DNA of 39,896 nucleotides from positions 1-39,896 of the forward strand of contig SOKM01000139.1 of the NCBI GenBank assembly GCA_004375785.1, in the 5' to 3' direction. This stretch comes from Candidatus Cloacimonadota bacterium (GTDB lineage Bacteria > Hydrothermota > E44-bin80). The translations under genes were made by a program, and so were the position numbers. Shown here one piece after another: positions 1,249 to 39,200 of the stretch. Each line of letters opens with the position of its first letter. The first letter of the stretch is position 1. A model generated the notes under the pieces. It searched no databases. It was not told the origin of the DNA and saw nothing but the letters and a program-made list of their open reading frames with translations.

Positions 1249-1252
1249 TGAC

Positions 1253-1660: not shown

Positions 1661-1679
1661 TTTTGACTCCTATTTCAAT

Positions 1680-2093: not shown

Positions 2094-2096
2094 AAT

Positions 2097-2732: not shown

Positions 2733-2760
2733 TAACGCCTCCTTTCAGATTTTATAAAAA

Positions 2761-5796: not shown

Positions 5797-5806
5797 TTTC
5801 CCTCCT

Positions 5807-19227: not shown

Positions 19228-19273
19228 TAAGATTTTCGTTCAAATTTTTTCTCAAAAAATTTTTTAAAAAATC

Positions 19274-19302
19274 TTGACAGAGTAATCTTTTTCCTTTATA
19301 CT
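19274..19302 (+). promoter_or_regulatory. Sigma70 promoter for paralog A
   Basis: TTGACA (19274-19279), a 17-nt spacer, then TATACT (19297-19302). Divergent from the tRNA promoter. About 130-nt leader to the ATG at 19440. Confidence 0.6.
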
Positions 19303-21212: not shown

Positions 21213-21220
21213 TACAACTG

Positions 21221-21252
21221 AAGTAGGGGCGCTCGATTGAACGCCCCTACTT
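21221..21252 (+). terminator. Hairpin terminator of paralog A
   Basis: AAGTAGGGGCG (21221-21231), a 10-nt loop, then CGCCCCTACTT (21242-21252), giving a perfect 11-bp stem 9 nt after the stop. A second hairpin CGCAGGC-ttta-GCCTGCG lies at 21284-21301. Confidence 0.6.
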
Positions 21253-21370
21253 TCATCTGTCAATTGCAATCAAGCAAGGTAGTCGCAGGCTTTAGCCTGC
21301 GTAAATACTTTACGTTTCTTAAACTAACCGAGCAATAATTGTTACTTCTCCAAATAGCTACTTTCTAATC

Positions 21371-21650
21371 TTACTGTAAAACAAGAAGAGGGATAAGCAT
21401 CTCATTCTTATTTAATCCACCATGGTGTGCTTTAAGGTCAAACTGGCTGTCCTGTCTCTGCTCTTTGAACCCATCTTTCTGATACCGAAGAGATTCAACT
21501 CTATTGATTCATTCCTTGTCAGTATAATAAATTTATTGGAAAATCTCTTGAATAGTTCCTTCAAACATTCTTCTTCACACCCATATTTTAGATAAAGATA
21601 AGATGCCCTGAATTCACTTTCCCTTTGTATTCAAGCGGAAAAATTTAACA
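21371..21650 (-). pseudogene. Possible decayed 3' remnant of an alkaline-phosphatase-superfamily-like gene
   Basis: Minus-strand frames in the A/B convergent gap read ...KELFKRFSNKFIILTRNES... and, after a frame change, ...VESLRYQKDGFKEQRQDSQFDLKAHHGGLNKNEMLIPLLVLQ* (stop at 21373-21371). The HGG..xEMxxPL tail is reminiscent of the AP/PglZ superfamily C-terminus. The reading is broken by stops and a frameshift. Very tentative. Confidence 0.2.
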
Positions 21651-21663
21651 AAGTAGGAATAAG

Positions 21664-21690
21664 ACAGGCGAGGCTGAGAGCCTCGCCTGT
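21664..21690 (-). terminator. Hairpin terminator of paralog B
   Basis: ACAGGCGAGGCT-gag-AGCCTCGCCTGT, a perfect 12-bp stem 29 bp past the stop at 21719, followed on the minus strand by a T-rich stretch (CTTATTCCTACTTTGTT). Confidence 0.6.
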
Positions 21691-21718
21691 TAAGACTAAC
21701 ATATTTTTCTCGACAGAA

Positions 21719-23464: not shown

Positions 23465-23640
23465 CTGTCAACCTCCTTTTTAGTTCTTTAAATCAAGTAA
23501 ATAAAAAATTCACCCCCTTTCATTAAAATTTTATTCAAGCAGATAAACCTTCTTATTCTGCATCACTTTTCTATTAATTGATTCATAACACATTTTCTTT
23601 ACAAAATCAAGAAAAAAAATCACAACTGCCTAACCTCCTA

Positions 23641-25242
23641 TTATTCTATACAAAAAATCCTTTTATCCATACAGACAATATAAAGCCTTTCAAACGATGG
23701 CGTGAATACAGCAGAATAGGGATACATTCCGACATCTATGTTCCATTCCACACTGTAATCAAATGTATTGATAACCAGAACTTTATAATCTGACCCCACG
23801 AAGAGATGATCACCGTTATCTGTTATTGACATCCCTTTTGGATGACTCAAACCATAAGGTGAAATCTCATCCAAAAGAGTATGAGTGGATGTCTCTATTA
23901 TCCCAACTGAATTGTTATCAAGTTCAGAAACGTAAGCCATTTCATAACCTGGTGAGAATAGTAATTCCCACGGCCTCCCTGAAATAGAGATAGTTGCAAT
24001 AACTGTATTCCACTCTATATCTATTACAGAGATTAGATTTTGGGCATAGAGACAGACATAAACCTCCTTATGGACAGTATCAATGGCTAATGCTGTCGGA
24101 TCTCCAGAGAGAGGGATAGAATCTACGATACTGCTTGCTTGAAGGGAATAAATCAGAACATCCTGCTTTGAATTTCTCGCAATATATAGTTTTTCATTAT
24201 TTGAACGTACAATGCCCTGTGGGCATCCACCAACATCTATTGTTTCAATAATCTGATTTAAGAAAATATCATATATTGCAAATGAACTGCCCGTAGTAAA
24301 ATAGACCTGGTTGTTTTCAAAAACATCCAGAAAATATGAAGTTCCTGTAAAAAACCGGGTAGTCCTTTCGATACTATTTGTTTCTGTATTGAGCATTACA
24401 AGATCATGACCTCCTGAGTCTACCTGGACAAAGAAGAGCTTCGTTCCATCCTCTGTTATATCTGCCCTGAACGGTATCCTTGCTGTATAAATGGTATCTA
24501 TTATCACATAGGGGAATGACGGATGAAATCCTATGAAAACATTGAGAGTGTCCGAAAAGCCAATATTTGCACTGTAATCCTCTGCAGTAGCATAAACTTT
24601 ATAAATTTCGCCTTCTTGAAAATCCCTGACATCAAGTATGCAATAATACGGAAAATATTTGTCTGTTTCAATCAATGAATCGTTTATAAAAAAAGAGACC
24701 CTTTTTACACCAGTATTATCCGTTGCATTCACTGAAATATATTCAAACCCGTATAAGGTATCACCTTCAACAGGATCTATAACTCTCACAGAGGGTGCGA
24801 ATGAATCAACCTGTACCCCAATCCCAAAAAAAGTAAGTGTGGTATCCTTAATCCTGTTCCCACTTATATCCTCAATATCCCTTATATTTATTTCATAAAA
24901 GGTTGACTCCTGCGGTTCTGTTATAAGTATACAATTCATCTTCATTGGGTCAATGTTTACAAGATGAACATCGAGGGTTTCATAACTTGTAATTATGTAG
25001 TTCATTGTGTCAATTGCCTGTGAGTCATTTAAGGTTTCGTTAAATGATACAAGCAACTTTGTTGTATCCAACGAAACAATACTTTTTATATAAGGAGGAG
25101 ATGTATCAGGAGGAAGAGGTTTATCCTTTTTTGTACAAGCTGATAAAAGGATTATAATTATTAAAATTCTCATAAAGACCGAATAATATTTTACGGGTTC
25201 ACTTTTCAACATAACTAATCTCTGCAACTTTAAGAAGAACAT
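23641..25242 (-). CDS. Lipoprotein with two Ig-like domains and a YVTN-type beta-propeller
   Basis: 533-aa ORF. The likely true start is Met24 (ATG 25173-25171), giving MRILIIIILLSAC with lipobox LSAC. An SbsA/Big-like domain (PPYIKSIVSLDTTKLLVSFNETL...YEINIRDIEDISGNRI) is followed by a second Ig-like domain (APSVRVIDPVEGDTLYGFEYISVNATDNTGVKRVSFFIND). Repeats then follow of the 40-residue YVTN type (NEKLYIARNSKQDVLIYSL..., HKEVYVCLYAQNLISVIDIE..., YEMAYVSELDNNSVGIIE...). No T9SS sorting domain. Confidence 0.75.
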   Translation of the reverse strand: MFFLKLQRLVMLKSEPVKYYSVFMRILIIIILLSACTKKDKPLPPDTSPPYIKSIVSLDTTKLLVSFNETLNDSQAIDTMNYIITSYETLDVHLVNIDPMKMNCILITEPQESTFYEINIRDIEDISGNRIKDTTLTFFGIGVQVDSFAPSVRVIDPVEGDTLYGFEYISVNATDNTGVKRVSFFINDSLIETDKYFPYYCILDVRDFQEGEIYKVYATAEDYSANIGFSDTLNVFIGFHPSFPYVIIDTIYTARIPFRADITEDGTKLFFVQVDSGGHDLVMLNTETNSIERTTRFFTGTSYFLDVFENNQVYFTTGSSFAIYDIFLNQIIETIDVGGCPQGIVRSNNEKLYIARNSKQDVLIYSLQASSIVDSIPLSGDPTALAIDTVHKEVYVCLYAQNLISVIDIEWNTVIATISISGRPWELLFSPGYEMAYVSELDNNSVGIIETSTHTLLDEISPYGLSHPKGMSITDNGDHLFVGSDYKVLVINTFDYSVEWNIDVGMYPYSAVFTPSFERLYIVCMDKRIFCIE

Positions 25243-25265
25243 AGAAGATCAGTAAATTCTGAATA

Positions 25266-25294
25266 AATATAACAAGTCTACTATCCTTTGTCAA
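25266..25294 (-). promoter_or_regulatory. Sigma70 promoter for the Ig/YVTN lipoprotein gene
   Basis: Minus strand reads TTGACA (25294-25289), a 17-nt spacer ending TGT, then TATATT (25271-25266). Confidence 0.6.
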
Positions 25295-25387
25295 GGGAAA
25301 TCTTGAGCCATTTTCAATTCAGACTTAAGACAAGGGTTTATAGATTTTTGAGGAGGACACAATTTTCCTTGACCGAGCGTAAAACTC

Positions 25388-25420
25388 AAAAAAAAACAAG
25401 GGATGGACATTAGCCTTCCT
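25388..25420 (-). terminator. Probable intrinsic terminator of paralog C
   Basis: On the minus strand a short imperfect hairpin (GGAAGG-ctaatgt-CCATCC, one mismatch) is followed by CTTG and a run of 9 T (rc of 25388-25396). It starts about 18 bp after the stop at 25438. Confidence 0.4.
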
Positions 25421-25437
25421 TTTTGACGTCTGATATA

Positions 25438-27234
25438 TTATTGAATAAGAAGTAATTTTCTGGTTTTTATGTATGAACCTGCTCTCAAGGTATAAAGATA
25501 GACGCCATCTGGAACATCTTTACCATTCAAATCCTTTCCATCCCAGACCACAAAATATGAACCCGCACCAGGAACACCATTTGCAAGATTTTTGACTAAT
25601 CTTCCAGATATGTCATAGATGTCAAGCGACATGGAAGTGTTGTTCGGAACCGTAAAACTAATTGTTGTCTTTTCCCTTACAGGATTTGGATAATTCTGAT
25701 AGAGCATAAGCAAAGATAGATTGGAAATCTCTTTTATTCCTGTTATAAAGTTCAAGTTAGGCACACGGGAATAATAAACACCAGCAGGGGGAACTCCATT
25801 AGCCATCTGACACCAGGTAATTCCACAACCTTGTGTATTAAGAGAAGCTTTTCCTTCTTGGATATAGTATGTCGTATGTGCATAAATAGCGTTTCTTGAG
25901 TCTCCGTAGCTTAGACTACTCACCTTACCACCGTATCTAACTGTTCCGGCATATGGTGTAATTGCTGCATAGTATACATTGAAAGGAGGATATGCACCTG
26001 TATCTTGTGAAGCACTTTCTGGCTGTGTTGTGGAGAAATAGATCTTATTATCAATTCCTATACCTGCAGAAGGATAACCACTTTCATAATTGCATACTTC
26101 ATATCTTGGGAACATAATTTTAACAGGTGTATGCCAGCAATCACCAAGTTTATGGGTATACCATAGTGTCCCAGCAGGACCGCATACATTAAAGCCAAGC
26201 AACCCAACCTGGCCACCTCCAGTCCCCATATTTTCCTGGAAGATAATATGTGGAACACCGTTATAATCCACAACAATTGCAGGACAGCAAAGAGCATGAT
26301 CATTAGGTGGCGATTGACCAAGAGCAACCAGTTCATGGTTCCAGGTATTGGTTACTGCATCCCAATAGAGTGCTAAAATGTCCATACACATATTGTCATC
26401 GTAATCAAAATTGAATGCTACCCACATATCTTTATTAGGTGTTGTTGTATTGGAACGATTAGGATTTGATGCAATTGAAGGGAGAAGCCAGGAGCCAGGC
26501 ATCTCTGAACCGTGTTCGTATGCTATACCTTGACCAACCCATGTTTCACCGCCGTCAGTTGAATAGTTGTAACCAATTGCATGCTCAAAACCAACAATAA
26601 CCCCTACTGTGAAGACAATCATAATGAGACTATCATTATTTATTGCCATTGAAGGGAAATATTCCTCTTCCCCATTCGTTGCAGAAATCATAATTGCAGG
26701 TCTCTCTACATTGTATTGAATTATTCCTCCTGATGTATCAAGGAATGCTCTTGCATAGAAGACTTCATACCCATCAGGGGTGCCCCCTATCTGATGCCAG
26801 GCAAAATGGAGATTCCCTTTACTGTCTGCACATACATTTCCTCTTCCTGTATCACGTCCTTGATTTGATGTAAAACTATCAGGATAAGACCAGCATTTTA
26901 ACAAATCATCCCAGTAGGAAAAAAGGGATTGTTGTCCCCAATCAGTTTCTGTTTCCCAAATAACAACAGGAAAAGAGTAACTTCCAACTATTACATTGGT
27001 GATATGTTTTGCATTTACATAATTCTGGGGAGAAAGGTAAGAACCACCATACCAGACGGGTTCATAGACTAAACAGACGGTGTCTAATGGGGGCGGATTA
27101 TCTACTGGGTGAATACAGCTTTCCTCACCTAAAGTCGGAAGCATTGGGCCTTCCATGCGAAGAGGATAGTTTCCGAAAAGTAAACTTCTACTTAATAGAA
27201 AGATTATCAAAAATAATAAACCTGAAAATTTCAT
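25438..27234 (-). CDS. Secreted Asp-box/beta-propeller-like protein with T9SS C-terminal sorting domain (paralog C)
   Basis: 598 aa. Signal peptide MKFSGLLFLIIFLLSRSLLFG. Asp-box STDGGETW. Sorting domain ...LYQNYPNPVREKTTISFTVPNNTSMSLDIYDISGRLVKNL...VWDGKDLNGK...RKLLLIQ. GGAGG 5 nt upstream of the ATG. Confidence 0.85.
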   Translation of the reverse strand: MKFSGLLFLIIFLLSRSLLFGNYPLRMEGPMLPTLGEESCIHPVDNPPPLDTVCLVYEPVWYGGSYLSPQNYVNAKHITNVIVGSYSFPVVIWETETDWGQQSLFSYWDDLLKCWSYPDSFTSNQGRDTGRGNVCADSKGNLHFAWHQIGGTPDGYEVFYARAFLDTSGGIIQYNVERPAIMISATNGEEEYFPSMAINNDSLIMIVFTVGVIVGFEHAIGYNYSTDGGETWVGQGIAYEHGSEMPGSWLLPSIASNPNRSNTTTPNKDMWVAFNFDYDDNMCMDILALYWDAVTNTWNHELVALGQSPPNDHALCCPAIVVDYNGVPHIIFQENMGTGGGQVGLLGFNVCGPAGTLWYTHKLGDCWHTPVKIMFPRYEVCNYESGYPSAGIGIDNKIYFSTTQPESASQDTGAYPPFNVYYAAITPYAGTVRYGGKVSSLSYGDSRNAIYAHTTYYIQEGKASLNTQGCGITWCQMANGVPPAGVYYSRVPNLNFITGIKEISNLSLLMLYQNYPNPVREKTTISFTVPNNTSMSLDIYDISGRLVKNLANGVPGAGSYFVVWDGKDLNGKDVPDGVYLYTLRAGSYIKTRKLLLIQ

Positions 27235-27375
27235 CTTTACCTCCTTCTTTCTTAAACATAAAACATTTGCACATCAGACCAAAGACATAAAACTTTTTCA
27301 TCCATTTTCTTATTCTCTATCTTTAAGGTCTTAAGTCTGTTGTCTAATATCTGAGTCCTATTATACTTATTCATA

Positions 27376-27412
27376 AATCTGTGACTATCTTTCCAATCTG
27401 TGCAAATCTGTG
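27376..27412. promoter_or_regulatory. Three direct AATCTGTG repeats in the D-C intergenic gap
   Basis: AATCTGTG occurs at 27376-27383, 27395-27402 and 27405-27412 (CACAGATT on the coding strand). The repeats lie directly upstream of a TATAAT (rc of 27360-27365) that lacks a -35 hexamer. Confidence 0.4.
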
Positions 27413-27429
27413 TGCTTTCTTTAACAATT

Positions 27430-29073
27430 TTACTCCAGCAGAATGAGTTTTTTTGTTAACACCTTCTCCCCTACTTTCAAATTTACGAAATAGACCCCAC
27501 TTTTCACCCTAATCCCAGTATTATCTCTCCCATCCCAGGACACGGCAGTGCCAGGTAACGAGTGCCCAGTACCCAGTGAAAAGTCTTTCACTAACCTCCC
27601 GCTCAAATCGTAGATTTTCAGTTCTATGTTCTTTACCCTTTGCCCTTTGCCCTCTGCACTTTGCTCTATGCCCTCTGCACTATGCACAATGCTGGGGAGT
27701 GTTAGGGAAATATGGGTGGTAGTGGTGAATGGGTTGGGACAAATCTTAAGAGATGAATTACTAAATTTATCTCTTTCTTCTTCTACTCCAACATAAAGCG
27801 GTGGCATATGTCTGAAATATATACTTCTACTGCCTGAGTCCTCACACCAGCATATATCAGGACCTGGCGGGGTTACAGGCAATGGCACATAGTAAATAAT
27901 ATGTGGGTGATAACAATATGCAGAATCTGAGCTGACAAGCACTCTTTCAATATTATAGATATTAGAATCAGGAACAATCTTCGTATAATAGACGGGTCCG
28001 ATGCCGTATCTGTTTCTTTGTTTCAGGCTAACAGGTTGGGTAAAAGCAATGTAAATATCATTACTCTCAGCAATTCCTACAGAGGGCCATCCAATATAAC
28101 CATTAAGTTCTGGAGTTGTTGTTGGTTTTATAGTGTCCGGCTCTGTCCAATTCCCACTTATCCTTCTTGTAAAAAGTAAAGAACCATATGGATCTACAAT
28201 GAACCTATTTTTATATTCTGATATAGTAGAACTGAGAAAAACAATTCCTGGCACACCATTGTAGTTGACGGTTATACCAGCACATACAAAGTCCTGCGAA
28301 TTCACTCCATAAGCAGCAACCTCGTTTGACCAGGTTCCAGATGATTTGTCGTAGTGAAGTGCGACAATGTCAATAAGGCTGTCTAAATTTATGTCAAATG
28401 TGGATGCAACCCACAGGTCGCCTGTTAAAGGGTCAGGTGCTATACTGTTGAGTAAAAACCCTCCTGATATTGGACCGGCATATGCTGTCTCAGCTGCTGC
28501 AATGTTTGAAAAGATAGCACTCTCTTCACCAATGATTCCGTGATTCCATACAATGTAAACACTGTCATTGTAAAGACAGAGTGCTGGAAAAGCATCCTCT
28601 TCGCTATCAGTTGCAGACATCATAACAGGTGGTCTCTGTACACTGAATTGAATTAATCCTGCCGAAGTATCAAAGAAAGCAGTTGTATAAAATATTTCGG
28701 AACCATCAGGATTGCCTGTTTGTTGCCAGGCAAAATGGAGGTTTCCATGACTATCCGATGCAACATTACCCCTTCCTGTATTCATCCCCTGACTCATTGT
28801 AAAACTATCTGGAAAAGACCAATATTTGAACATATCGTCCCAGTAAGAGAAAAGTGATTGATAACCCCACAAGCCACCTGTCTCCCAAATTACAACAGGG
28901 AAGTAGTAACTACCCATAATTACATCTGTAATATGCTTTGCGTTGGGCCAGGCAAGCGGCTGGTCATAACCAATTCCTGTCCATACGCTTGATATAGAAT
29001 CGGGTGGAGAAAATGGTTGAGTAACTGAAATAATCGGGATAAAAACGATTAGAAAAATAATTAAGTATTTCAT
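27430..29073 (-). CDS. Secreted propeller-like protein with T9SS C-terminal sorting domain (paralog D, most divergent)
   Basis: The ORF track extends to 29169, but that extension translates a GC-rich hairpin. By alignment with paralog E (GGAGGTATTATG versus GGAGGTATGATG) the start is ATG 29073-29071 (MKYLIIFLIVFIPIISV), or 29076. The family blocks are shared (AKHITDVIMGSYYFPVVIWETG, SLFSYWDDMFKYWSFPDSFT, GNLHFAWQQTGNPDGSEIFYT) but there is no Asp-box. The sorting domain carries a heptamer-tract insertion. Confidence 0.8.
   Translation of the reverse strand: MKYLIIFLIVFIPIISVTQPFSPPDSISSVWTGIGYDQPLAWPNAKHITDVIMGSYYFPVVIWETGGLWGYQSLFSYWDDMFKYWSFPDSFTMSQGMNTGRGNVASDSHGNLHFAWQQTGNPDGSEIFYTTAFFDTSAGLIQFSVQRPPVMMSATDSEEDAFPALCLYNDSVYIVWNHGIIGEESAIFSNIAAAETAYAGPISGGFLLNSIAPDPLTGDLWVASTFDINLDSLIDIVALHYDKSSGTWSNEVAAYGVNSQDFVCAGITVNYNGVPGIVFLSSTISEYKNRFIVDPYGSLLFTRRISGNWTEPDTIKPTTTPELNGYIGWPSVGIAESNDIYIAFTQPVSLKQRNRYGIGPVYYTKIVPDSNIYNIERVLVSSDSAYCYHPHIIYYVPLPVTPPGPDICWCEDSGSRSIYFRHMPPLYVGVEEERDKFSNSSLKICPNPFTTTTHISLTLPSIVHSAEGIEQSAEGKGQRVKNIELKIYDLSGRLVKDFSLGTGHSLPGTAVSWDGRDNTGIRVKSGVYFVNLKVGEKVLTKKLILLE
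27631..27693 (-). repeat. Nine tandem 7-bp units (CTTTGCC-like) inside the sorting-domain coding sequence of paralog D
   Basis: Units are CTTTACC CTTTGCC CTTTGCC CTCTGCA CTTTGCT CTATGCC CTCTGCA CTATGCA CAATGCT. On the coding strand they are GGCAAAG-like and encode IVHSAEGIEQSAEGKGQRVK. Confidence 0.8.
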
Positions 29074-29133
29074 CATACCTCCTTGTTCTTTGGAGTACAA
29101 CAAGCCCTTTTGTTGCGTCCTTGTATAAGGCGA

Positions 29134-29150
29134 TGAGGCTCGAAGCCTCA
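29134..29150 (-). terminator. GC-rich hairpin between paralogs E and D (attenuator/REP-like)
   Basis: TGAGGCT-cga-AGCCTCA in the context AGGCGATGAGGCTCGAAGCCTCACCTGT. Same family as the hairpins at 18131-18170 and 21664-21690. 119 bp past the E stop and 58 bp before the D start. Confidence 0.4.
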
Positions 29151-29222
29151 CCTGTTGAAAAGGAAACAAATTTGCTTAACAAGGTACTTGTATAATTACG
29201 CATTTCATCTATTATGTTTTTC

Positions 29223-29256
29223 ATCTGTGTAATCTGTTCTTATAATCTGTGTAATC
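29223..29256. promoter_or_regulatory. Two perfect 12-bp direct repeats ATCTGTGTAATC, 22 bp apart
   Basis: Copies at 29223-29234 and 29245-29256, with a partial third copy AATCTGTT at 29231-29238. Same ATCTGTG core as the repeats at 27376-27412. Starts 13 bp past the stop of paralog E. Confidence 0.4.
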
Positions 29257-29268
29257 ACGTCATTCTTT

Positions 29269-30996
29269 TTACTCAAGCAGGATGAGTTTTTTTGTTAGCA
29301 TCTTCTCCCCTACTTTCAAGTTTACGAAATAGACCCCACTCCGCACTCTCCTGCCAGAGTCATCCCTCCCATCCCAGGACACAACAGTGACAAGTGACGA
29401 GTGCCCAGTGCCCAGTGAAAAGTCTTTCACTAATCTCCCACTCAGGTCATAGATCTTCAGTCCTATGTTCTTTACCCTTTGCCCTTTGCCCTCTGCCCTT
29501 TGCCCTATGCTGGGGAAAGACAGGGAGATATGGGTGGTATTGGTGAAAGGATTTGGGTAAGCTGTTAATTTTGGATTTAAAATTTCGAGTTTAGGATTTT
29601 CAGTCTGTTTAATACCCACTAATTGATGCATTTGTTTATAGTAAACATCTGCAGGTGGAACACATGATTCCATCTGACACCATGTGATACCAGGTCCGTC
29701 AGAGGAATCTGTAGGGATGTTATAAACTATATGAGGATAGATGGTATTCATTGAACTGCCCCAGGGAATCTCACTAACCTTCGTTCTTGGAACAGAGAAC
29801 ATTCCAAGTTCAGGGTTAATCTTCCAATAATAAACGTTAAATGGCCAATAAGCTCCTGTATCAGGAGAAGCGCTATCTGGCTGTGTGCAGGTTATGTATA
29901 TCTCATTTTCCTGGGTTATGCCTGCGGATGGAAAACCGGATAATGCATTAGTAGGTCCACTTTCTGGAAATCCAATTTCAACAGGTGAACTCCAACCCCC
30001 TGTTTCTCTTCTTGTAAAGACAAGAATACCACTTAGCCGCTCTGGAAACGGTGGTATACCTCCTCCTCCAGGATTATAAATTTTCAAGAAGACAATTGAA
30101 GGGTTTCCAAAAAAATCAACACATATTACTGGAAGTGAATATGCCCATTCAATAGAAGAAGAAACTAAAACTTCTTTTGTCCAGATGTTACCAATTGCAT
30201 CATAGTACAATGATACAACATCTATTTGATCATCACCAGAATCATCAAAGTTTAAGGCAACCCACATATCTCCTGTGTTGGGGTCGGGAGCAATGGAGGG
30301 CAGTATCCAATCACCCGTCATACTAGTTCCGTGCTCATATGCTATATCTCGACCAACCCAGCTGTTTCCACCATCAGTTGAATAGTTATAACCAACTGTA
30401 TGCTCTTCATAAATTGGTCCAACATTGAAGACAACCATAATGAGGGTGTCACCATATATAGCCATTGCAGGAAAGAGTTCCATTTCACCATTTGTTGCAG
30501 AAATCATAACAGCAGGTCTCTCTACATTATACTGTATTATCCCTGCAGATGTATCAAGGATAGCCCTTGAATAAAATATTTCGTAACCATCTGGAGAACC
30601 TGCCTGATGCCAGACAAAGTGCAGATTCCCTTTACTATCAACACAAACATTCCCCCTTCCAGTATCCTGACCATTGTTTGATGTAAAGCTGTCAGGATAA
30701 GACCAGAATTTGAACATATCATCCCAGTAAGAGAAAAGTGATTGATTGCTCCACGAACCTCCCGTCTCCCATATTACAACAGGGAAATAGTAACTCCCCA
30801 CTTTTACATTTGTGATATGTTTTGCATTGGGATAGTTCTGGGGAGAACTCTCATAACCTCCATAATCAATTCCAGAAAAAACCATACATAGGCTATCTGG
30901 GGGAGGCGGATTATCCATCCCCTGCGCTTCAATCCTCTCTCCTATAAAGAGAAGGATTAAGAATATGAAAATAAGAGAAAAATTTATTTTTTTCAT
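29269..30996 (-). CDS. Secreted Asp-box/beta-propeller-like protein with T9SS C-terminal sorting domain (paralog E)
   Basis: The ORF track starts at 31017, but GGAGG falls inside that extension (NNGG). The likely start is ATG 30996-30994 (MKKINFSLIFIFLILLFIG), 4 nt after GGAGG. Asp-box variant STDGGNSW. The sorting domain carries a heptamer-tract insertion (SIGQRAEGKGQRVKNIGLKIYDLSGRLV). Confidence 0.85.
   Translation of the reverse strand: MKKINFSLIFIFLILLFIGERIEAQGMDNPPPPDSLCMVFSGIDYGGYESSPQNYPNAKHITNVKVGSYYFPVVIWETGGSWSNQSLFSYWDDMFKFWSYPDSFTSNNGQDTGRGNVCVDSKGNLHFVWHQAGSPDGYEIFYSRAILDTSAGIIQYNVERPAVMISATNGEMELFPAMAIYGDTLIMVVFNVGPIYEEHTVGYNYSTDGGNSWVGRDIAYEHGTSMTGDWILPSIAPDPNTGDMWVALNFDDSGDDQIDVVSLYYDAIGNIWTKEVLVSSSIEWAYSLPVICVDFFGNPSIVFLKIYNPGGGGIPPFPERLSGILVFTRRETGGWSSPVEIGFPESGPTNALSGFPSAGITQENEIYITCTQPDSASPDTGAYWPFNVYYWKINPELGMFSVPRTKVSEIPWGSSMNTIYPHIVYNIPTDSSDGPGITWCQMESCVPPADVYYKQMHQLVGIKQTENPKLEILNPKLTAYPNPFTNTTHISLSFPSIGQRAEGKGQRVKNIGLKIYDLSGRLVKDFSLGTGHSSLVTVVSWDGRDDSGRRVRSGVYFVNLKVGEKMLTKKLILLE
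29470..29511 (-). repeat. Six tandem 7-bp units (CTTTGCC-like) inside the sorting-domain coding sequence of paralog E
   Basis: Units are CTTTACC CTTTGCC CTTTGCC CTCTGCC CTTTGCC CTATGCT, encoding GQRAEGKGQRVK. A second 7-bp-periodic tract GACAAGT GACGAGT GCCCAGT GCCCAGT lies at 29388-29415. Confidence 0.8.
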
Positions 30997-31037
30997 AATA
31001 CCTCCATTATTAAACATTAGTCATTCGCAGACTACTT

Positions 31038-31078
31038 TTAACATACCCTCCAGTTAAAAGTGATGAAGGGTATGTTAA
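31038..31078 (-). other. 12-bp perfect inverted repeat in the predicted 5' leader of paralog E
   Basis: TTAACATACCCT (31038-31049), 17 nt, then AGGGTATGTTAA (31067-31078). On the transcript it would begin about 7 nt after the predicted sigma54 start site and is not followed by a U-tract. Confidence 0.5.
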
Positions 31079-31095
31079 CATCTAAATAATAAATA

Positions 31096-31111
31096 AGCAA
31101 GAACTGTGCCA
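31096..31111 (-). promoter_or_regulatory. Sigma54 (-24/-12) promoter upstream of paralog E
   Basis: Minus strand 31111-31096 reads TGGCACAGTTCTTGCT, that is TGGCAC-N5-TTGCT. This matches the TGGCACG-N4-TTGCW consensus in 10 of its 11 fixed positions, with correct GG-N10-GC spacing. 100 nt upstream of the ATG at 30996. Confidence 0.7.
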
Positions 31112-31172
31112 TGATAATAAGTGCTTGTATTTATGGAGTTATGGTAAAAATAAGGGAAACTTTTATCGTTTA

Positions 31173-31195
31173 ATATGTATACAAAGTATACATAT
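31173..31195. promoter_or_regulatory. Candidate enhancer (UAS) palindrome 1
   Basis: ATATGTATAC-aaa-GTATACATAT with perfect 10-bp arms, about 75 bp upstream of the -24 element. Confidence 0.5.
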
Positions 31196-31242
31196 TTTGA
31201 ACTTCCTGCAAAACCTTACTACTATTGAATTTCTTTAAGGGG

Positions 31243-31265
31243 AAGTGTATACTTAATATACACTT
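31243..31265. promoter_or_regulatory. Candidate enhancer (UAS) palindrome 2
   Basis: AAGTGTATA-cttaa-TATACACTT with perfect 9-bp arms. Shares the TGTATA half-site with palindrome 1, centres about 70 bp apart. About 40 bp past the stop of the activator gene. Confidence 0.5.
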
Positions 31266-31305
31266 TTCAGACGTGAGTATTTATTAAGAGGGGTGTGTAA
31301 CCCCC

Positions 31306-34300
31306 TTACTTAGAGGGAACTTTGTGGATATTATATTTATCTATATATTTATAGATGGTTCTTCTCGTTACACCTAAGAATTTAGCTGCCTTTGCAATAT
31401 TCCAGTTACTTATCTGCAATGCATCGATGACTGCTGCCCTCTTGAGTTCTTTTAATGGAACAATTTCCTTTCTGGATATATCTGCAAACCCCAGATCTTG
31501 AATGGTAATCAACTCATCCTTTGAAAGCACAACTGCCCTCTCAATAACATTCTGCAGTTCTCGTATATTTCCGGGCCACTGATATTCTTTCAAAGATTCA
31601 ACCACCTGTGGGGAAAAACCTTTAATATCATTATTTATCTCTTTACTGAACCTTTCAAGAAAGAATTGGGCAAGAACCGATATATCATTTACTCGCTTTC
31701 TTAAAGGAGGGACATCAATGCTAAAGACATTAATTCGATAGAAAAGGTCTTTTCTAAACCTCCCCTCTTTGACCTCAACATCTAACTCTTTATTTGTAGC
31801 AAAGAGAAATCGAACATCTACTCTTCGCGTTTTTGTTTCTCCAAGCCCACGAATTCTCTTCTCCTCGATTGCCTCAAGAAGTTTTGCCTGGAATGCGAGA
31901 CTTGTATTGGCAATTTCATCCAAAAATACGGTCCCTGATTCACCCTCTTCTAATAGTCCTTTTTTGTCACTTACAGCGCCGGTAAACGAACCCTTTTTAT
32001 GACCAAAGAGTTCTGATTCCAGAAGGGTTTCGGGAATTGTTCCACAATTTATTGTGAGAAATTTGTTCTTTTTTCTTTTGCTTTTTAGGTGAACAAGTCG
32101 GGCGAGCATACCTTTTCCAGTCCCGGTTTCACCAAGTATGAGAACAGGGGAATTTGTTTTTGCAACGCTTTCAATTAATCGGTAGACCTTTTTCATAGGT
32201 GCAGATTTACCGATAATATAACCCGCACCAATCTCTTCAATCATTTTGCTCTTTAACAGAATATTCTCCTCGCTTATTGAACGAAAAGCAATTGATTTTT
32301 CTATTACTGAAGCAAGGATTCTCGATACGGTTAAGAGGAAATCTTTATCTTGAATGCCAAATATTCCACTGGAAATTCTTGAATCGAGATATAGTGCGCC
32401 GATAACATTCTCTGATACTAAAAGTGGAATACAGAGTAAGGAACGAATTTTATTTAACATAACACTCTTTTTTATGTTAAAATTTGTATCCGAGAGAGCA
32501 TCCCGGGTAAAGATAATTTTAGTCTTTTCTATCTCTTTAATAGCGGTTTTGGAAAGTTCTTTCGCATCCTTTATTGTAATGTTGTCAATATCCCTTCCAG
32601 CGCAAAATTTCATTCCCTTAGCTCCTTTTATAAATAATGCCCCTCTTTCTGCGTTGGTTGTCTGGATTATTAAATCGAGCGTACTCTGAATAAAATCCTC
32701 ATCACCAAGATGGAGGCTAATAAGCTCTGCAAGTTTTGAAAATGTATCAAGGTATTCAGCCGAAATAACCCTTCTCGAATAATCCTCGGTGATAATTGGC
32801 AATAATTTTAACTGAATCTTCTCAACCCTGCTAAGTTCCAACCCTGCACCAAGTGAAGCAAATATTTCTTTTACTCTATTCAATCCCTCTGCAATATTTT
32901 TTATTTCCTCATCTGCAATGCCTCTATTTATTATTGATTCAATGTGCAGTCTCTCAAGATATGCATAGTCATAAATACAACCTATCTCTTTTAACCTGTT
33001 TGTTTCCTGTTCTATGTCAAGAGCATCCACATTCTTGAGGTTGAATCTGTTTATTTTTATAAAACCAGTGGCAATCGTATATTCTCTACTTGAAGGATTT
33101 GTCAATTCTTTTATCTTCTTTGAAAAACTTAGAGACCTCTTAAAATCTCTTTTCTCATAATAAAACTGAGATGTCACAAAAAATGACTCAATCCTTGTCT
33201 GAATGTCAAGTTTTTCGGTCTTGAGCATTTTCAATCCCTTATTGAGTGCGTTCTCTGCAAATTCAGTTCTCCCAAGACTCAAATTAATCATTGCCATTGC
33301 AAAGAAATAAAGGAGCTCTTCTTTTATCCCAGATTGCTCTTCTATAAATAATTTTGCCTGAGTAATCTCACCCTTTTTATAGAATACCCTTGAGAGGCAA
33401 TAGTTTGACATCGGAGCGTAGGGCTTGTTCTTAAGTACTTTTTTATAAAAATTGATTGCCCTATCAAATCTTCCTGAATTTTCATTTATATTACCGAGGT
33501 TTCCTAAAGCTCTATATTCCGCTGCCCTATTACTGGTCTGGTATGCTATGATTAATACATCGTTAAATAATTCCCTCGCCTTTGAGAAATTACCCCGACA
33601 GACGCATAGAAATGCAAGATTATTTAACGAACTCGCCTGGGCATTGGCTAACCTCATTTCTCTAAACCTCTTGATGGCATCTTCCACATATCCCTGTGCC
33701 TGCCCTATCTCTCCTTTTTGCTGTAACAGGAAACTTACAAGATTTTCCATATATGCAAACTGCTTTAAGAGTTTATTCTTTTTGGTAAATCTTAAACTCG
33801 CTTTAGCCTTTTCTATCCCACTCTCAAAATTACCTTTAAGCCCTTCGTAGAGTGCCTGATAATACATAGTTTCCGCCAGCATTTCAGCTTTACTGATTTT
33901 ATTTTTTGACAAAAATGACTGATTAAGAATAAACTTTACCTCTTCGAAGCGTTTTAAGTATAACAAAGAATAAACGGCTATTTTTATATAATCCTGGGTT
34001 TCCTTGCTCTTACTAAATACCATAGCCTTCCGTAAAAATTTTACTGCCTCTGTGTATTCTCCCACTGCTGAATAGACCAAACCCAGACCAGTATATACCC
34101 TGCCTGTTAAATCTTTTCTTTTGCATTTCAGCACCTTATTATAGTATTCAATTGCAATCTTATTTCTACCTATAATTTGATTTAAATCCGCAATTCTTAT
34201 TAAGGTCTCTGTATATTTTTCATGAATATTTCTCTTTTCATATCGAAGCATTATTTCGTAATACTTTAGTGCAGAATCATAATCATAAATTGAGTCTGCA

Positions 34301-36213
34301 TTTTTTGCAGACGATTGAAAATATGTATATGTCTTATCTTTATCTCCAATTCTATCACATAATCGGGCAAGAATTGGTAGATAATCTTTATCTTTTGGTA
34401 TGGTGTTCTCTATTGCATTGATAAGGGTCTGAGAGAGTAATTTCTTTTCTTTCCTCTTTAAATCCTTAACAATTAAGTGAACAAGTATCTGATTGGGTAT
34501 ATAGACTACTCTCTTATTATTTATAATTTCTTCACTTAACAAACCAAAATTTTTCAGATGTTCAATTTGAATATCAAGATTGGATTTCAGAACCAAACTG
34601 ATAACCGCAGTCTCCAGGGGATGATTGGCAAGGGAAAGAACCTTTAATATCTCTATTTCAAGATTTTCAAGTGCCTTAACCCTCATTTCTAATAAATCCT
34701 CTATTTTAAAAGGTATTACAGTTTTATGGAGCAAGCCCATTTTTATCTGCCATCTATCAGCCCGATAAAAAATAATCTTATTCTCATACAGTGTCTTTAA
34801 AATTTCCTCAATAAATAAGGGATTACCACCACTCTGTTTATGTAACCAGCTTGCGATATCTGTAAGATATGAATTTTTAACACTACCTGTTGGCACAATC
34901 TCGAAGAAGGTTCTTTCTAATAATTTTTTTACATCATTTATAGAAAGGGGTTGTAAAGAGAGACTTTTAAATCCTAAACCATTCACCCTTTCAGTAGATT
35001 TTGAAGTACCAATCAATAAAATATCAGTCCCTTTAAGACCATAGCCAATATATCTGAACAATTCCAGGTCATAATCAGACAGTCCATCAAGGTCATCAAC
35101 CATAATTATAACATGCTTATCTTTTGCAAAATTAATAAGCTCCGCTGTAATCTCTTCAAAAATTTGAAACTTATCTTCTTTGTCGGAAAGGTCAATCTTT
35201 TTACCGCCGATAAAATTTTGTAGTGATTTAAGAAAATTGGTTTTTTCTCTGGAAATATAATAGGATACTGAACAACCCTGCATTAAATATTTAAACTTCA
35301 TTTCCAGTAATAATCGGGTCTTACCAGAACCAGTATCACCATTAATTATAACCGCCTTACTTCTTGCACTTGCCAATTTTTCTAAAATCTCAGGCTTCTC
35401 CACAAATCCAGTTTTAGGTAATTTAACTTCATACGGTGGTATTTCTATTTTAATCGAAGTTAGGTATCGACTCAATGTATGAAGGAGTTCAGAAATTGTC
35501 GGTCTTACCGCAGGTTCTTCTGAAACAAGTCGAGTAAGAATATCTTTTATCTCACGCGAAATATTCTTTATTGGTTTATAAGTCTTCTTGAATTTTTTAC
35601 CGGAAAGAATTTCGTAAATTATTACACCGAGTGAATACAGGTCGCTTCGTTGGTCAACACCAATCCCTTTAATAACCTCTGGTGCCATATAGCCAATGGT
35701 CCCAGCCAGTTTGGTGGAATGTGTTGGAATGCCAGCAAAACCAAAATCAATAAGAACAGCTCTCTTCTCTTTTGGAGCATATAAGATATTCTCAGGTTTT
35801 ATATCACTGTGAATAAACCCTCTATTATGAAATGAACCAAGTCCATTGATTACTTGAATTACTGCTGAAATAAACTCTTCTGAAAATCCCTTAAAAGATT
35901 CATTTATAGGTTTTCCCGAAACATATTCGAGTGTAAAATATGACCTTCCGTCCCAGGTAATATTGTAATCAAAGACCAAAACAATATTGGGGTGTTTGAA
36001 TTGAGAAAGTATCTGGTATTCTCGTGAGATTAATTCATTATACTCGGCATCTTCTTTTCGTGCTATTTTTAAGGCTAAAGGGGGCTTACCAGTCTCTTTG
36101 ACTTTATAGACAATTGCATAATTGGTCTCTTCAATCTTCTCAAGGATGTGATAACTTTCTATTTTTTTAATTTTTTTAGGCATACGGTTCAGGGTTCGCT
36201 TTGCGCTTTTCAT
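31306..36213 (-). CDS. Giant fusion regulator: Ser/Thr kinase + STAND (AAA_16-like) NTPase + TPR + GAF + sigma54-interaction AAA+ + Fis-type HTH
   Basis: 1635 aa.
- Kinase motifs: LALKIA (Lys49), HSDIKPENIL, DFG, GYMAPE.
- STAND NTPase: Walker A GDTGSGKT (aa 292-299), Walker B HVIIMVDDLD.
- Long TPR-like region.
- GAF-like region: AERGALFIKG...LLCIPLLVSENVIGALYLDS.
- Sigma54 module from about aa 1332: GETGTGKG, ESELFGH, GSFTGA, TVFLDEI, RVDVRFLFATN, WPGNIRELQN.
- C-terminal HTH: NIAKAAKFLGVTRRTIYKYI. Confidence 0.9.
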   Translation of the reverse strand: MKSAKRTLNRMPKKIKKIESYHILEKIEETNYAIVYKVKETGKPPLALKIARKEDAEYNELISREYQILSQFKHPNIVLVFDYNITWDGRSYFTLEYVSGKPINESFKGFSEEFISAVIQVINGLGSFHNRGFIHSDIKPENILYAPKEKRAVLIDFGFAGIPTHSTKLAGTIGYMAPEVIKGIGVDQRSDLYSLGVIIYEILSGKKFKKTYKPIKNISREIKDILTRLVSEEPAVRPTISELLHTLSRYLTSIKIEIPPYEVKLPKTGFVEKPEILEKLASARSKAVIINGDTGSGKTRLLLEMKFKYLMQGCSVSYYISREKTNFLKSLQNFIGGKKIDLSDKEDKFQIFEEITAELINFAKDKHVIIMVDDLDGLSDYDLELFRYIGYGLKGTDILLIGTSKSTERVNGLGFKSLSLQPLSINDVKKLLERTFFEIVPTGSVKNSYLTDIASWLHKQSGGNPLFIEEILKTLYENKIIFYRADRWQIKMGLLHKTVIPFKIEDLLEMRVKALENLEIEILKVLSLANHPLETAVISLVLKSNLDIQIEHLKNFGLLSEEIINNKRVVYIPNQILVHLIVKDLKRKEKKLLSQTLINAIENTIPKDKDYLPILARLCDRIGDKDKTYTYFQSSAKNADSIYDYDSALKYYEIMLRYEKRNIHEKYTETLIRIADLNQIIGRNKIAIEYYNKVLKCKRKDLTGRVYTGLGLVYSAVGEYTEAVKFLRKAMVFSKSKETQDYIKIAVYSLLYLKRFEEVKFILNQSFLSKNKISKAEMLAETMYYQALYEGLKGNFESGIEKAKASLRFTKKNKLLKQFAYMENLVSFLLQQKGEIGQAQGYVEDAIKRFREMRLANAQASSLNNLAFLCVCRGNFSKARELFNDVLIIAYQTSNRAAEYRALGNLGNINENSGRFDRAINFYKKVLKNKPYAPMSNYCLSRVFYKKGEITQAKLFIEEQSGIKEELLYFFAMAMINLSLGRTEFAENALNKGLKMLKTEKLDIQTRIESFFVTSQFYYEKRDFKRSLSFSKKIKELTNPSSREYTIATGFIKINRFNLKNVDALDIEQETNRLKEIGCIYDYAYLERLHIESIINRGIADEEIKNIAEGLNRVKEIFASLGAGLELSRVEKIQLKLLPIITEDYSRRVISAEYLDTFSKLAELISLHLGDEDFIQSTLDLIIQTTNAERGALFIKGAKGMKFCAGRDIDNITIKDAKELSKTAIKEIEKTKIIFTRDALSDTNFNIKKSVMLNKIRSLLCIPLLVSENVIGALYLDSRISSGIFGIQDKDFLLTVSRILASVIEKSIAFRSISEENILLKSKMIEEIGAGYIIGKSAPMKKVYRLIESVAKTNSPVLILGETGTGKGMLARLVHLKSKRKKNKFLTINCGTIPETLLESELFGHKKGSFTGAVSDKKGLLEEGESGTVFLDEIANTSLAFQAKLLEAIEEKRIRGLGETKTRRVDVRFLFATNKELDVEVKEGRFRKDLFYRINVFSIDVPPLRKRVNDISVLAQFFLERFSKEINNDIKGFSPQVVESLKEYQWPGNIRELQNVIERAVVLSKDELITIQDLGFADISRKEIVPLKELKRAAVIDALQISNWNIAKAAKFLGVTRRTIYKYIDKYNIHKVPSK

Positions 36214-36243: not shown

Positions 36244-39200
36244 CTACATATTTTCTATTTCCTTCACTTTTTTAAGCCAGCTGTGAGCACAGGATTTTTT
36301 AAAGATTTTCTTCGCACTATTTATCTCTCTCTTAGCCTCTTTAATTTTTCCTGCATCTGCAAGAATCCTTGCAAGTTCATAAGATGATTTTGCAATTTCA
36401 AGCTGCATCTTCTGTTTTTTTGCGAGAGCTATTGATTGCCTAAGATAAGAAATTGCTTTTTTCAGATTCTGACTGGGTATTGTTTTTTTTCGCTGTTCTC
36501 TGTCCTTTAACCTACATCTTACATCGTACATCTTACATCCCTTTTCCTCTCTCTTCCTTCTGCTATCTTCTATCTGCTTTCTGCTAACTTCAAATAATGC
36601 CTTACCGAAAACCCGCAAAGCAATGACTTCTTTTTCCCTTGCGCCTGTCTCCTTCGCAAGGGAAAGTGCTTTTTCTGAGAATGTAAGAGCAGTTTCATAC
36701 TCTTCCCTAACCGTATCCAAATCAGATAGTGAAGCATAAACCGACGACAAATTAATTTTATCCCCTATTTTCGTCAGGATTTTTTTTGACTTTTCAAGAT
36801 ATTTTCTGGAAGTATTGAGCTCTCCCTTACTACAATAGACAATTCCAATATTGCAAAAAGCCGCACCAATACCACCTTTGTAACCTATTCCCTTTGCTAC
36901 AGCAAGGGACTTTTTATAATAGTTTAAAGTCCTATCGAATTTTCCTTTATCATGATAGACAGAACCAATGTCACCTGAAACAATACTAACTCCCAATTTA
37001 TCGCCCATCTCCTCTGCTATGGTGAGATATTTTTTAAAATATTTCAAAGCAGTATCAAGGTCACCTCTATCAAAATAGATAGTCCCGATTTTACCAGAAG
37101 CTCTTCCGACTCCCATTTTATCGCCAATCTCTTCAGATATAGAAAGATAAATTTTACAATATTTCAATGCAGGAGCAAATTCTCCTTTCTTTCCATAGAC
37201 TACCCCGATATTACCAGACACAGCACCAATTCCACTTTTATAACCTATTCCCTTTGATGTGGCAAGACCTCTCTTATAATGTCTTAAAGCAGTATCAAGT
37301 TCGCCTTTATCATGATAGACATTACCAATATTGTTGGATGTAACAACTATTCCCTTTTTATCATTTAATTCACCATAGATTTCCAATGCCTTCTCGTGAT
37401 GCTTTAGTATTTTTTCATAATCTCCTTTGAGCAGAAAAATGTTACCAAGCGTGGTTAAACCCCTAGCATAGATCTTATTTTCTCCTATCTTATCTAATTT
37501 TTTTAATGTTCTTTCTATCATTTCCTGAGCTTTTTCGTAATCATTTCTTCCATCGGCAAGAACGAAAGCATAATTAATAAGTGTTTCTGACAGAACAGGC
37601 GAATCAGGTATGTTTTTTAGCATTCGTATTGCTTCCTCATAATTAGAAAAAGCGCTATCGTATTTCCCCTTTTGCCTGAATATATGCCCTGTCTTTCTTT
37701 TAATTCCTGCCATTTTTTCTATATCTCTGTAATAACCAAAAGCAACCTTATAGTTTTTTATTGCGTTATCATATTCTGCTTTTATTTCTTCTACATCACC
37801 CATTTTTTCAAATAGTTCTGCCATACTCTCTTGTTCATCTTCAGGAAATAATTTTTTATGAATCTCTATTGCCTTTGCATAACACCCTATTGCTACATTA
37901 TTGCTGTAGAGTTTTTTTGCCCTGTCCCCCGCCTTTTTATAATACTCATAAGATTTCTCAAGAATCTCTGCATTAAAATAATGATAGGCAATGACCTCAT
38001 AGTAGTCCTCTATTTTTTCTCGAAATATTCGCTCCACACATTCTGCAACCTTTTTATGTATTTCACATTTTTTCTTTTTTGATAACCCGGTATATGCGAC
38101 ATCCTTTATTAGAATGTGTTTAAAACCATATTCTGCATCTTGTGAGAATTGCGCAGCAGTGAAGGAATTTGTTTTTCTCTGGATAAACCCTCTCTCTTCA
38201 AGAAAACCAAGATTTTTTGAGAGATTATCTTTCTTACTTATAGAGGAAAGAATCCTACAGAGAAAATTTTTTCCGATAACCGAAGCCCTGCCAAGAACCT
38301 CTTGTACCTCAGGGGGTAATTGGTCGATTCTTGACCGTATTACCGCTTCGACTGTATCGGGCACTTCAAACGAAGAGATACTTTTTGCAACCCGCCATGA
38401 ACCGCTATCACGTTTTAGAACACCCGATTCAATGAATGAGCGGACGATTTCTTCTATGTAAAATGGATTACCCTCTGATTTTTCCAGAACAAGGGATGAT
38501 AATTCCCCTGGAGGCTCAGGAATCTTCAGAAGGTTCTGAATGAGTCTCTTTGCATCATTGGTGTCAAGTGCTCTCAAGCTGATTTCATTATATCTCTTTT
38601 TGAAAATATTTTGAATAGACTCTTTGATTTTATATAAACCTGTTTTCTTCTCGGGTCTTGTTTCAAAGAGAAAAAATATGGATTCATCCTGTAATCCATC
38701 AAGAAGAAATTTTAGAAGCTCTAACGATTCAGGGTCAATCCAGTGCATATCCTCAAAATAGAGGATGAGTGGTTTATTTTTTGCAATATCTCTAAAGAGC
38801 ACCTTCACAGAGACAAATTCCTGCAAGCGCAAAGATTCAGGGTCAAGGTATTTTACCTTTTCCTGAAGGTGTTCAAGAACCTTGATAGACAAGAATATGC
38901 AAAGATAGGGAAGATATTCATCTGTCCTCTCCTTAAAAAGGCTCTCCGCTTTCCCTCCCACTTTTCTTCTTGATTGCAAATCAAGGTCGGAATCACGGAC
39001 TCCAAGATAGGAGCGGATTTGCTCGAGAAATACCCAGAAGGGAAAACCCTTACCATAGGAGGGACATCTCCCACTCAACCAGTTCACCTTATCTTTTGTA
39101 ATCTTTTTGAATTCATCGATAAGACGTGACTTCCCAACACCAGCCTCTCCATTTATGGATAACACTGCACTCTTCGCCTTCATAACCTTATCCAGAACCG

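Follow-up and report, generated by a model that had tools for sequence, protein, structure and literature searches.

The question raised by the 288-bp spacer at positions 31018-31305 of the window (the whole 39,896-nt stretch analysed here, contig SOKM01000139.1 of assembly GCA_004375785.1, from a Candidatus Cloacimonadota bacterium) is what controls the gene downstream of it. On the minus strand, the spacer lies between a gene predicted to encode a 1635-aa enhancer-binding protein (EBP), hereafter the regulator, and paralog E, a member of an array of paralogous genes for putative cargo of the type IX secretion system (T9SS). A sequence-only reading of this DNA had proposed that a sigma-54 promoter and two palindromes in the spacer put the secreted paralog E under the adjacent giant regulator. 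In this study, the proposal is supported by conservation of the module in 21 other loci, by its fixed geometry, and by covariation of the palindromes with the recognition helix of the neighbouring regulator, and we consider it probable (about 0.85) that the spacer is a complete sigma-54-dependent control region of paralog E, acting under the regulator beside it.

The promoter is represented by a -24/-12 element, TGGCACAGTTCTTGCT, at 31111-31096 on the minus strand, which is the strand of paralog E. The TGGCAC-N5-TTGCT match previously noticed there is confirmed, with the GG at 31110-31109 and the GC at 31098-31097, 10 nt apart within TGGCAC-N5-TTGCW. The exact pattern TGGCAC-N5-TTGC occurs once on the two strands of the 39.9-kb window, in agreement with the claim that this is its sole sigma-54-type element, against a mean of 0.04 in dinucleotide shuffles of the window (at least one occurrence in 4 of 100 shuffles). 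When the usual sigma-54 geometry is applied, with the C of the GC (31097) taken as -12, transcription of paralog E is predicted to start near 31085, leaving a leader of about 89 nt before the ATG at 30996, which lies 100 nt from the -12 element as had been stated. This ATG is probably the start codon of paralog E, with GGAGG 8 nt upstream of it and a signal peptide beginning MKKINFSLIF.

Upstream of this element are the two palindromes. The first has perfect 11-nt arms (31172-31182 and 31186-31196), so that its earlier placement at 31173-31195 was right in location but one nucleotide short in each of its supposed 10-bp arms; the second has perfect 9-nt arms (31243-31251 and 31257-31265), as described before. 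Both contain one and the same 17-bp dyad, TGTATA-N5-TATACA, made of 7-nt arms around a 3-nt spacer, and the window holds only these two exact matches to it. The proximal dyad, the perfect palindrome TGTATACAAAGTATACA (31176-31192), is centred at 31184, 73 bp upstream of the -24 T and at about -99 from the predicted start; the distal dyad, TGTATACTTAATATACA (31246-31262), is centred at 31254, 143 bp upstream of the -24 T and at about -169, and the separation of 70 bp agrees with the earlier estimate. Both putative upstream activating sequences (UASs) thus lie within the range of about 80-200 bp upstream expected for a UAS of a -24/-12 element. Perfect palindromes with arms of at least 9 nt and a 3-5 nt spacer are themselves more frequent in the window than in shuffles (5 distinct against 0.68), and two of the five fall in the 288-bp spacer. 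A third dyad would be expected at about 31326, inside the coding end of the regulator gene, and none was found there on reading the window sequence.

The regulator gene (31306-36213, minus strand), whose stop codon at 31306-31308 is 40 bp from the second palindrome as reported, was assigned as an EBP gene from Pfam matches, relatives of solved structure and orthologs. Its product carries, in order, a Ser/Thr protein kinase domain (Pkinase), a STAND NTPase (AAA_16/NACHT/NB-ARC-like), TPR repeats, a GAF domain, Sigma54_activat, AAA_lid_14 and HTH_8, the last three of which make up the complete sigma-54-interaction module with a C-terminal helix-turn-helix (HTH) that the sequence-only reading had recognised. 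The match to Sigma54_activat (PF00158) has E = 1.4e-65 and covers model positions 1-167 of 168, and the Fis-type HTH_8 (PF02954) is found at residues 1589-1627 with 35.4 bits against a cut-off of 22. Over the whole of its C-terminal 320 residues the regulator aligns with NifA and ZraR, the best solved relatives, the two Walker motifs (A, GETGTGKG; B, FLDEI) and the loop that contacts sigma-54 (GSFTGA) included, and comparison of the AAA+ domain with ZraR, NtrC1, NtrC4 and PspF gives E values of 1e-54 to 1e-75. Among 82 full-length orthologs the kinase Lys, the catalytic Asp, DFG, APE, the STAND P-loop and G[AS]FTGA are invariant or nearly so, and the kinase glycine loop is degenerate.

More than 100 orthologs of the regulator, of about 1620 aa, were found in WOR-3, Stahlbacteria, TA06 and a few other bins, and their loci were obtained by exact-protein look-up and by one scan of species-representative genomes with the family-specific GAF region. 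The comparative set consists of 21 loci besides the window, from WOR-3, Stahlbacteria and TA06, with regulator identities of 44-74%; locus L025 was left out for the downstream module owing to 100-N gaps. In all 21 of these loci, which have readable downstream DNA, the regulator is followed by a -24/-12 element, and 26 promoters in the 22 loci fit TGGCAY-N5-TTGCW, with minor variants (TTGT in L004 and L016; AGGCAC or GGGCAC in L043 and L020). A proximal dyad is recognisable in all loci but L020, where an A/T-only palindrome stands at about 60 bp, and its copy in L011 is degenerate. Most loci have the centre of this dyad 70-75 bp before the T of TGGCA; in four with deviant recognition helices (L018, L021, L042 and L043) the distance is 59-60 bp. 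Further dyads are found about 143 bp upstream in most loci and sometimes also at about 215 bp, successive dyads being 69-73 bp apart (mean about 71), with two dyads per promoter in the class to which the window belongs (class A) and three in several other classes. In class A, L003, L005 and L009 have their proximal TGTATAC dyad 72-75 bp before the -24 T, and the second dyad is at 143-146 bp in all loci (140-145 bp in most other classes). When the five class-A spacers were aligned, the longest runs of invariant columns fell on the dyads and on the GG and TTGC blocks, with scattered invariant positions elsewhere.

The specificity of this arrangement was assessed over 325 kb of family loci on both strands, taking a score of at least 10 of 11 as a sigma-54-like match. 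There were 25 such matches against 4.35 in shuffles; 22 of the 25 were paired with a dyad at the distance expected, compared with 0.25 in shuffles, and 17 had two dyads (none in shuffles), and all 22 dyad-paired matches were downstream of a regulator gene and on its strand. It is this enrichment in other genomes which decides that the module exceeds chance.

The strongest competing explanation accepts the -24/-12 element as functional, and proposes that paralog E is nevertheless expressed mainly through transcription that continues from the regulator operon or begins at an unrecognised sigma-70-type promoter, the dyads serving autoregulation or acting as a roadblock to the regulator transcript. 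Several observations fit it. The only barrier after the regulator stop codon is a short GC hairpin, GGGGGTTACACACCCC (31290-31305, minus strand), an imperfect dyad which has no T-tract and was not called by the terminator scan, although we infer that it may act as a weak terminator-like element parting the regulator transcript from the enhancer; weak 9/12 matches to sigma-70 promoters overlap the spacer at 31212-31185 and 31024-30995; and in L025 (CP070664.1, a WOR-3 chromosome) a perfect dyad, TGTGCCATTTTGGCACA, at 6663-6679 stands directly upstream of a TTGACA box before the regulator paralog P0017, which could be autoregulation. On the other hand, the distance between dyad and promoter is fixed (72 ± 2 or about 60 bp) in the 21 loci with a recognisable proximal dyad, whereas the distance from the regulator stop codon to the -24/-12 element varies from 160 to 410 bp, thus the dyads are tied to the promoter rather than to where the regulator gene ends. 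In L007 and L008, moreover, the module follows another gene, a STAND (AAA_16-TPR) gene directly downstream of the regulator, and in the source contig neither dyads nor -24/-12 elements were found upstream of the operon that contains the regulator, so that autoregulation is rejected there. Taken together, these observations make this explanation improbable. As to L025 itself, the HTH of P0017 is masked by a 100-N assembly gap, and CP070664.1 carries a second regulator paralog, P0019.

If the palindromes are bound by the regulator, their sequence should follow its DNA-binding helix, and this is what the 22 loci show: about eight recognition-helix types of the neighbouring regulator go with five or six half-site types. 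The helix VTR[RK]TIYKYI of the window, L003, L005, L009 and L011 (class A) is paired with the half-site TGTATAC; IGRATLWRYI or ISRSTLWRYI (L004, L016, L007 and L008) with TGTTTCA; IGRTSIYRYM (L010, L012, L014 and L015) with TGTGTCA; IGRR[ST]LHRYI (L019 and L024) with TGTGCCA; RRTI[QE]RYIKK (L040, L041 and L043) with TGCGACA; SRRTVYRYI (L042) with TGTGACA; and R[RK]TLYN[LY]L with TGTG[TC]AA in L018 and L021, the site of L020 being degenerate. One of these pairings was predicted in advance: after L004 had been read, the regulators P0043 and P0066 were picked because they have the helix of L004, at only 44-48% identity to the query overall, and the TGTTTCA dyad was found exactly in L008 and as degenerate copies at the expected positions in L007. 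Within each locus the class-specific dyad is confined to its own module. The TGTATAC module precedes two small-protein genes in L011 and a T9SS paralog in the window; since one helix/dyad class serves different target genes, the dyad tracks the regulator and not the target. This covariation points, in silico, to specificity of the UAS for its cognate EBP, and we regard it as strong in-silico evidence that the palindromes are the neighbouring regulator's own enhancer.

The covariation also bears on the proposal that the palindromes act as RNA, either as hairpins for termination or processing of the regulator mRNA or as a leader structure, and not as protein-binding DNA. Perfect inverted repeats just past a stop codon can certainly form hairpins; these, however, are A/T-rich with 3-nt loops and no U-tract after them, were not called by the terminator scan, match no Rfam family and lie upstream of the predicted start of the paralog E transcript. 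Furthermore, it is the sequence of the arms and not merely their pairing that is conserved within a class, and across classes the arms vary with the HTH recognition helix, which makes a role in RNA very unlikely. Equally slight is the chance that an unlinked factor binds the dyads (TGT...ACA dyads are used by unrelated regulators too) with a different EBP at the promoter, or that the -24/-12 match is fortuitous, given the agreement of half-site and neighbouring HTH class in 22 loci, the advance prediction included, and the 22 composite sites against 0.25 in shuffles.

A number of observations nevertheless weigh against control of paralog E by sigma-54 and the regulator. Taken by itself, the -24/-12 site of the window is merely suggestive, because TGGCAC-N5-TTGC with at most one mismatch shows no enrichment (1 observed against 1.45 expected), a figure which would also suit a chance match. 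No rpoN gene was found in the window, and the RpoN-box pattern RRT[VIL][ASTG]KYR gave no match in six-frame translations of the window and all fetched loci (458 kb); the presence of sigma-54 in this organism is suggested indirectly by intact EBPs and by the conserved -24/-12 elements. The contact loop of the regulator reads GSFTGA instead of GAFTGA, a variant shared by 23 of the 82 orthologs. Some read-through from the regulator gene into paralog E may also occur past the weak hairpin. The 70-bp spacing of the dyads corresponds to about 6.7 helical turns, which is not integral at 10.5 bp per turn, and the two dyads would therefore lie on different faces of relaxed B-DNA, in contrast to the classic NtrC or PspF sites, which are close together. 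Finally, a scan of metagenome contigs with the exact composite class-A pattern GTATAC-N3-GTATAC-N55-80-TGGCA-N6-TTGC gave 14 matches, of which only L032 and L033 belong to the family, both adjoining the regulator, and the others were GC-rich or unrelated sequences; confinement of the composite site to the regulator's side in this exact-match scan fits a one-promoter regulon.

With these reservations, we propose the following model. Sigma-54 holoenzyme would sit on TGGCAC-N5-TTGCT (31111-31096) as a closed complex, and dimers of the 1635-aa regulator would occupy the TGTATAC-N3-(G/A)TATACA dyads at about -99 and -169 through the C-terminal Fis-type HTH. On a signal, the N-terminal sensory modules (Ser/Thr kinase, STAND NTPase, TPR and GAF) would free the AAA+ domain, the dyad-bound dimers would build an active ring, and the ring would reach sigma-54 through DNA looping and use ATP in opening the promoter, so that transcription from about 31085 would yield a T9SS-secreted beta-propeller protein. 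Binding, looping, the activating signal and the transcription start are inferred in this model. A bolder extension, to which we give only a small share of our belief, is that the regulator family constitutes a self-contained one-promoter signalling device, in which the AAA+ ring is built on DNA from dimers at dyads about 71 bp apart, with long-range oligomerisation driven by STAND/TPR, wrapped DNA, and a private enhancer for each paralog or lineage. The three dyads of many loci could then correspond to three dimers and one hexamer, and the long dyad period might, speculatively, reflect oligomerisation of the STAND module or wrapping of the DNA; at the helical repeat of surface-bound DNA, about 10.15 bp per turn, 71 bp makes seven turns.

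The predicted target, paralog E (29269-30996, minus strand), encodes a protein with a signal peptide, a beta-propeller resembling sialidases and ulvan lyases, and a T9SS C-terminal sorting domain. The description of the downstream gene as a T9SS-cargo paralog is upheld by a type-A sorting domain (TIGR04183, 40.2 bits against a cut-off of 23; PF18962, Por_Secre_tail, 32 bits against 27) together with the hydrophobic N-terminus MKKINFSLIFIFLILLFIG. An AlphaFold model (pLDDT 85) is a beta-propeller, for which Foldseek returned PL25/PL24 ulvan lyases, a rhamnose-glucuronate lyase and sialidases as the nearest solved folds (E of about 1e-9, TM 0.5-0.6). The family comprises 69 proteins in a database of 5.8 billion proteins, nearly all of the named members being labelled WOR-3 and two Cloacimonadota, some of them labelled exo-alpha-sialidase, and orthologs of paralog E occupy the equivalent position in L003 and L002.

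A T9SS beta-propeller paralog is the target in the window, L003 and L005. In most relatives the module precedes a gene whose 62-68-aa product has a signal segment or membrane anchor and, in several loci, also a tail rich in proline; a second usual target encodes a protein of 60-71 aa (HLYEIKMLDGxRYxGEIAYKD...), for which a faint Hfq-like match was obtained (E = 0.07), and a GAF-HD protein gene often comes after the two small-protein genes, which are absent from the window. Other targets are a radical SAM enzyme (L004 and L016), a C1 peptidase (L007) and an S8 peptidase with a T9SS tail (L008). Turnover of targets beside a constant regulator/enhancer pair thus characterises the family. In the IGRTSIYRYM class the whole module is tandemly duplicated, its copies about 650-760 bp apart (at 5528 and 6288 in L010), each with up to three dyads and a -24/-12 element upstream of a gene for a small HLYEIKMLDG... 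protein, and an additional imperfect dyad, TGAATTACCCTAAATCA, is conserved in this class 24 bp before the -24 T.

Paralog E belongs to a group of five paralogs of the T9SS beta-propeller family within 12 kb (19440-31017), amid which lies an unrelated Big_7/beta-propeller-like gene (23641-25242), and it is the only one of the five to have the sigma-54 module. The predicted 5' untranslated region of paralog E contains a hairpin with a 15-bp stem (31038-31078, minus strand; an inverted repeat with a fold of -25.5 kcal/mol, z = -3.6), the arms of which contain CCCUUC and GGAGGG, respectively, resembling an anti-Shine-Dalgarno and a Shine-Dalgarno sequence. The hairpin was considered as a conserved riboregulator and rejected: it has no Rfam match, and it is absent from L003, L005, L009 and L011, which marks it as lineage-specific. 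It had also been suggested that paralog D is probably co-expressed with E by read-through, and this is not supported. The two genes are separated by a 190-nt spacer with a GC hairpin that has no T-tract, and this spacer, like that upstream of paralog C, carries ACACAGAT(T) repeats in two or three copies each (29223-29252 and 27406-27413, minus strand), which suggests separate control of D; we regard such control as at least as likely as read-through from E. There are 4 exact copies of ACACAGAT in the window against 1.29 expected, and the repeats may be a common control element of D and C, distinct from the sigma-54 module.

The earlier view that every other recognisable promoter in the window is of the TTGACA-N17-TATAxT type holds for two sites: TTGACA-N17-TATACT at 19272-19300 (plus strand), upstream of paralog A (19440, plus strand), and TTGACA-N17-TATATT with a TG extension at 25294-25266 (minus strand), upstream of the gene beginning at 25242. 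Taken as a class, sigma-70-like matches are no commoner in the window than in shuffles. These two near-consensus promoters make it seem that the -35/-10 boxes here are E. coli-like and not of the Bacteroidetes type.

Upstream of the regulator by 30 bp is a gene (36244-39888, minus strand) assigned by Pfam to a protein with a cyclase-homology domain, AAA_16 and TPR (STAND), and the two genes are probably co-transcribed. Its place beside the regulator is conserved: L004, L005 and L009 share this neighbour, which in L007 and L008 lies downstream of the regulator. Both class III metal-binding Asp residues of the cyclase-homology protein are replaced by Asn (FANISGLT and IGNCIM, compared with fsDIrGFT and vGDcvM in CyaB), thus the domain is probably catalytically dead, and the idea that the neighbouring cyclase makes the ligand for the GAF domain of the regulator is weakened by the loss of these residues. 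The best NCBIfam match of this protein, a TOMM kinase/cyclase fusion, is below cut-off. At the other end of the window (634-7315, minus strand), and unrelated to the sigma-54 module, is a TonB-ExbD-ExbD-ExbB cluster beside genes for a 1011-aa TonB-dependent receptor-like protein (CarboxypepD_reg and Plug) and an NHL-repeat protein.

As far as can be told without a literature search, the system described here is the first specific, testable transcriptional circuit for uncultured WOR-3/Stahlbacteria, in which the regulator, its predicted binding sites and the target are all named. It also provides a table of Fis-type recognition helices against five or six half-site types, with a strict geometry in which the first dyad lies about 72 bp from the promoter and others follow in steps of about 71 bp, and the helix/half-site pairs are potential orthogonal sigma-54 parts; should the one-promoter device prove true, the family would be a natural collection of orthogonal EBP/UAS pairs. 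As a case of target turnover, the regulator and enhancer appear to have been re-wired from an operon of small-protein and GAF-HD genes to a secreted beta-propeller gene. Our results support a classical EBP/UAS/sigma-54 unit, the novelty of which lies in regulator architecture, enhancer geometry and diversification of helix and half-site, and to our knowledge a eukaryotic-type kinase and a STAND switch fused to a sigma-54 activator fall outside the textbook EBP repertoire.

Among known systems, NifA is the most similar in its activator module. The UAS of NifA is a 16-bp TGT-N10-ACA found at sigma-54 nif promoters of Klebsiella, Azotobacter and rhizobia. The C-terminal third of the regulator follows the NifA order of GAF, sigma-54 AAA+ and Fis-type HTH, NifA is its best match both among solved structures (9qq6, E = 2.4e-75) and in NCBIfam, and the dyads likewise begin with TGT, end with ACA and stand at least about 100 bp upstream of a -24/-12 promoter. 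However, the regulator scores 342.1 bits with TIGR01817, under the cut-off of 528.85, the dyad of the window is a 17-bp TGT-N11-ACA with a 7-N3-7 layout, and neither the domain scans of the window nor the gene lists of the loci retrieved contained nif genes, so that the regulator is not NifA. It differs further in its 1150-aa N-terminal kinase-STAND-TPR extension and in the two or three dyads spaced 69-73 bp at its promoters.

In the form of the site there is a parallel with NtrC, which binds a 17-bp dyad, TGCACCA-N3-TGGTGCA, at glnAp2. Genes for classical EBPs such as NtrC, PspF, ZraR and DctD often adjoin their targets, and the sites of NtrC and PspF are about three helical turns apart. The regulator shares with NtrC the 17-bp 7-N3-7 dyads upstream of a sigma-54 promoter and the position of its gene next to the target, but differs in a site spacing of about 71 bp with up to three sites, and in its input, which is a fused Ser/Thr kinase, STAND NTPase, TPR and GAF and not a receiver domain. 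The input half resembles that of STAND regulators. MalT, AfsR, GutR and the mycobacterial cyclase-ATPase-TPR-LuxR proteins act through a LuxR or SARP HTH with the sigma-70 holoenzyme; like these proteins, the regulator has a P-loop NTPase followed by TPR sensor repeats and fused to a DNA-binding output, and unlike them its output is a sigma-54 AAA+ activator module. With respect to the kinase, the FHA-domain EBPs of Myxococcus xanthus rely on a separate Ser/Thr kinase, whose phosphorylation is read by the FHA domain; they share with the regulator the principle of Ser/Thr phosphorylation signalling into sigma-54 activators, whereas the regulator carries the kinase domain within the same polypeptide.

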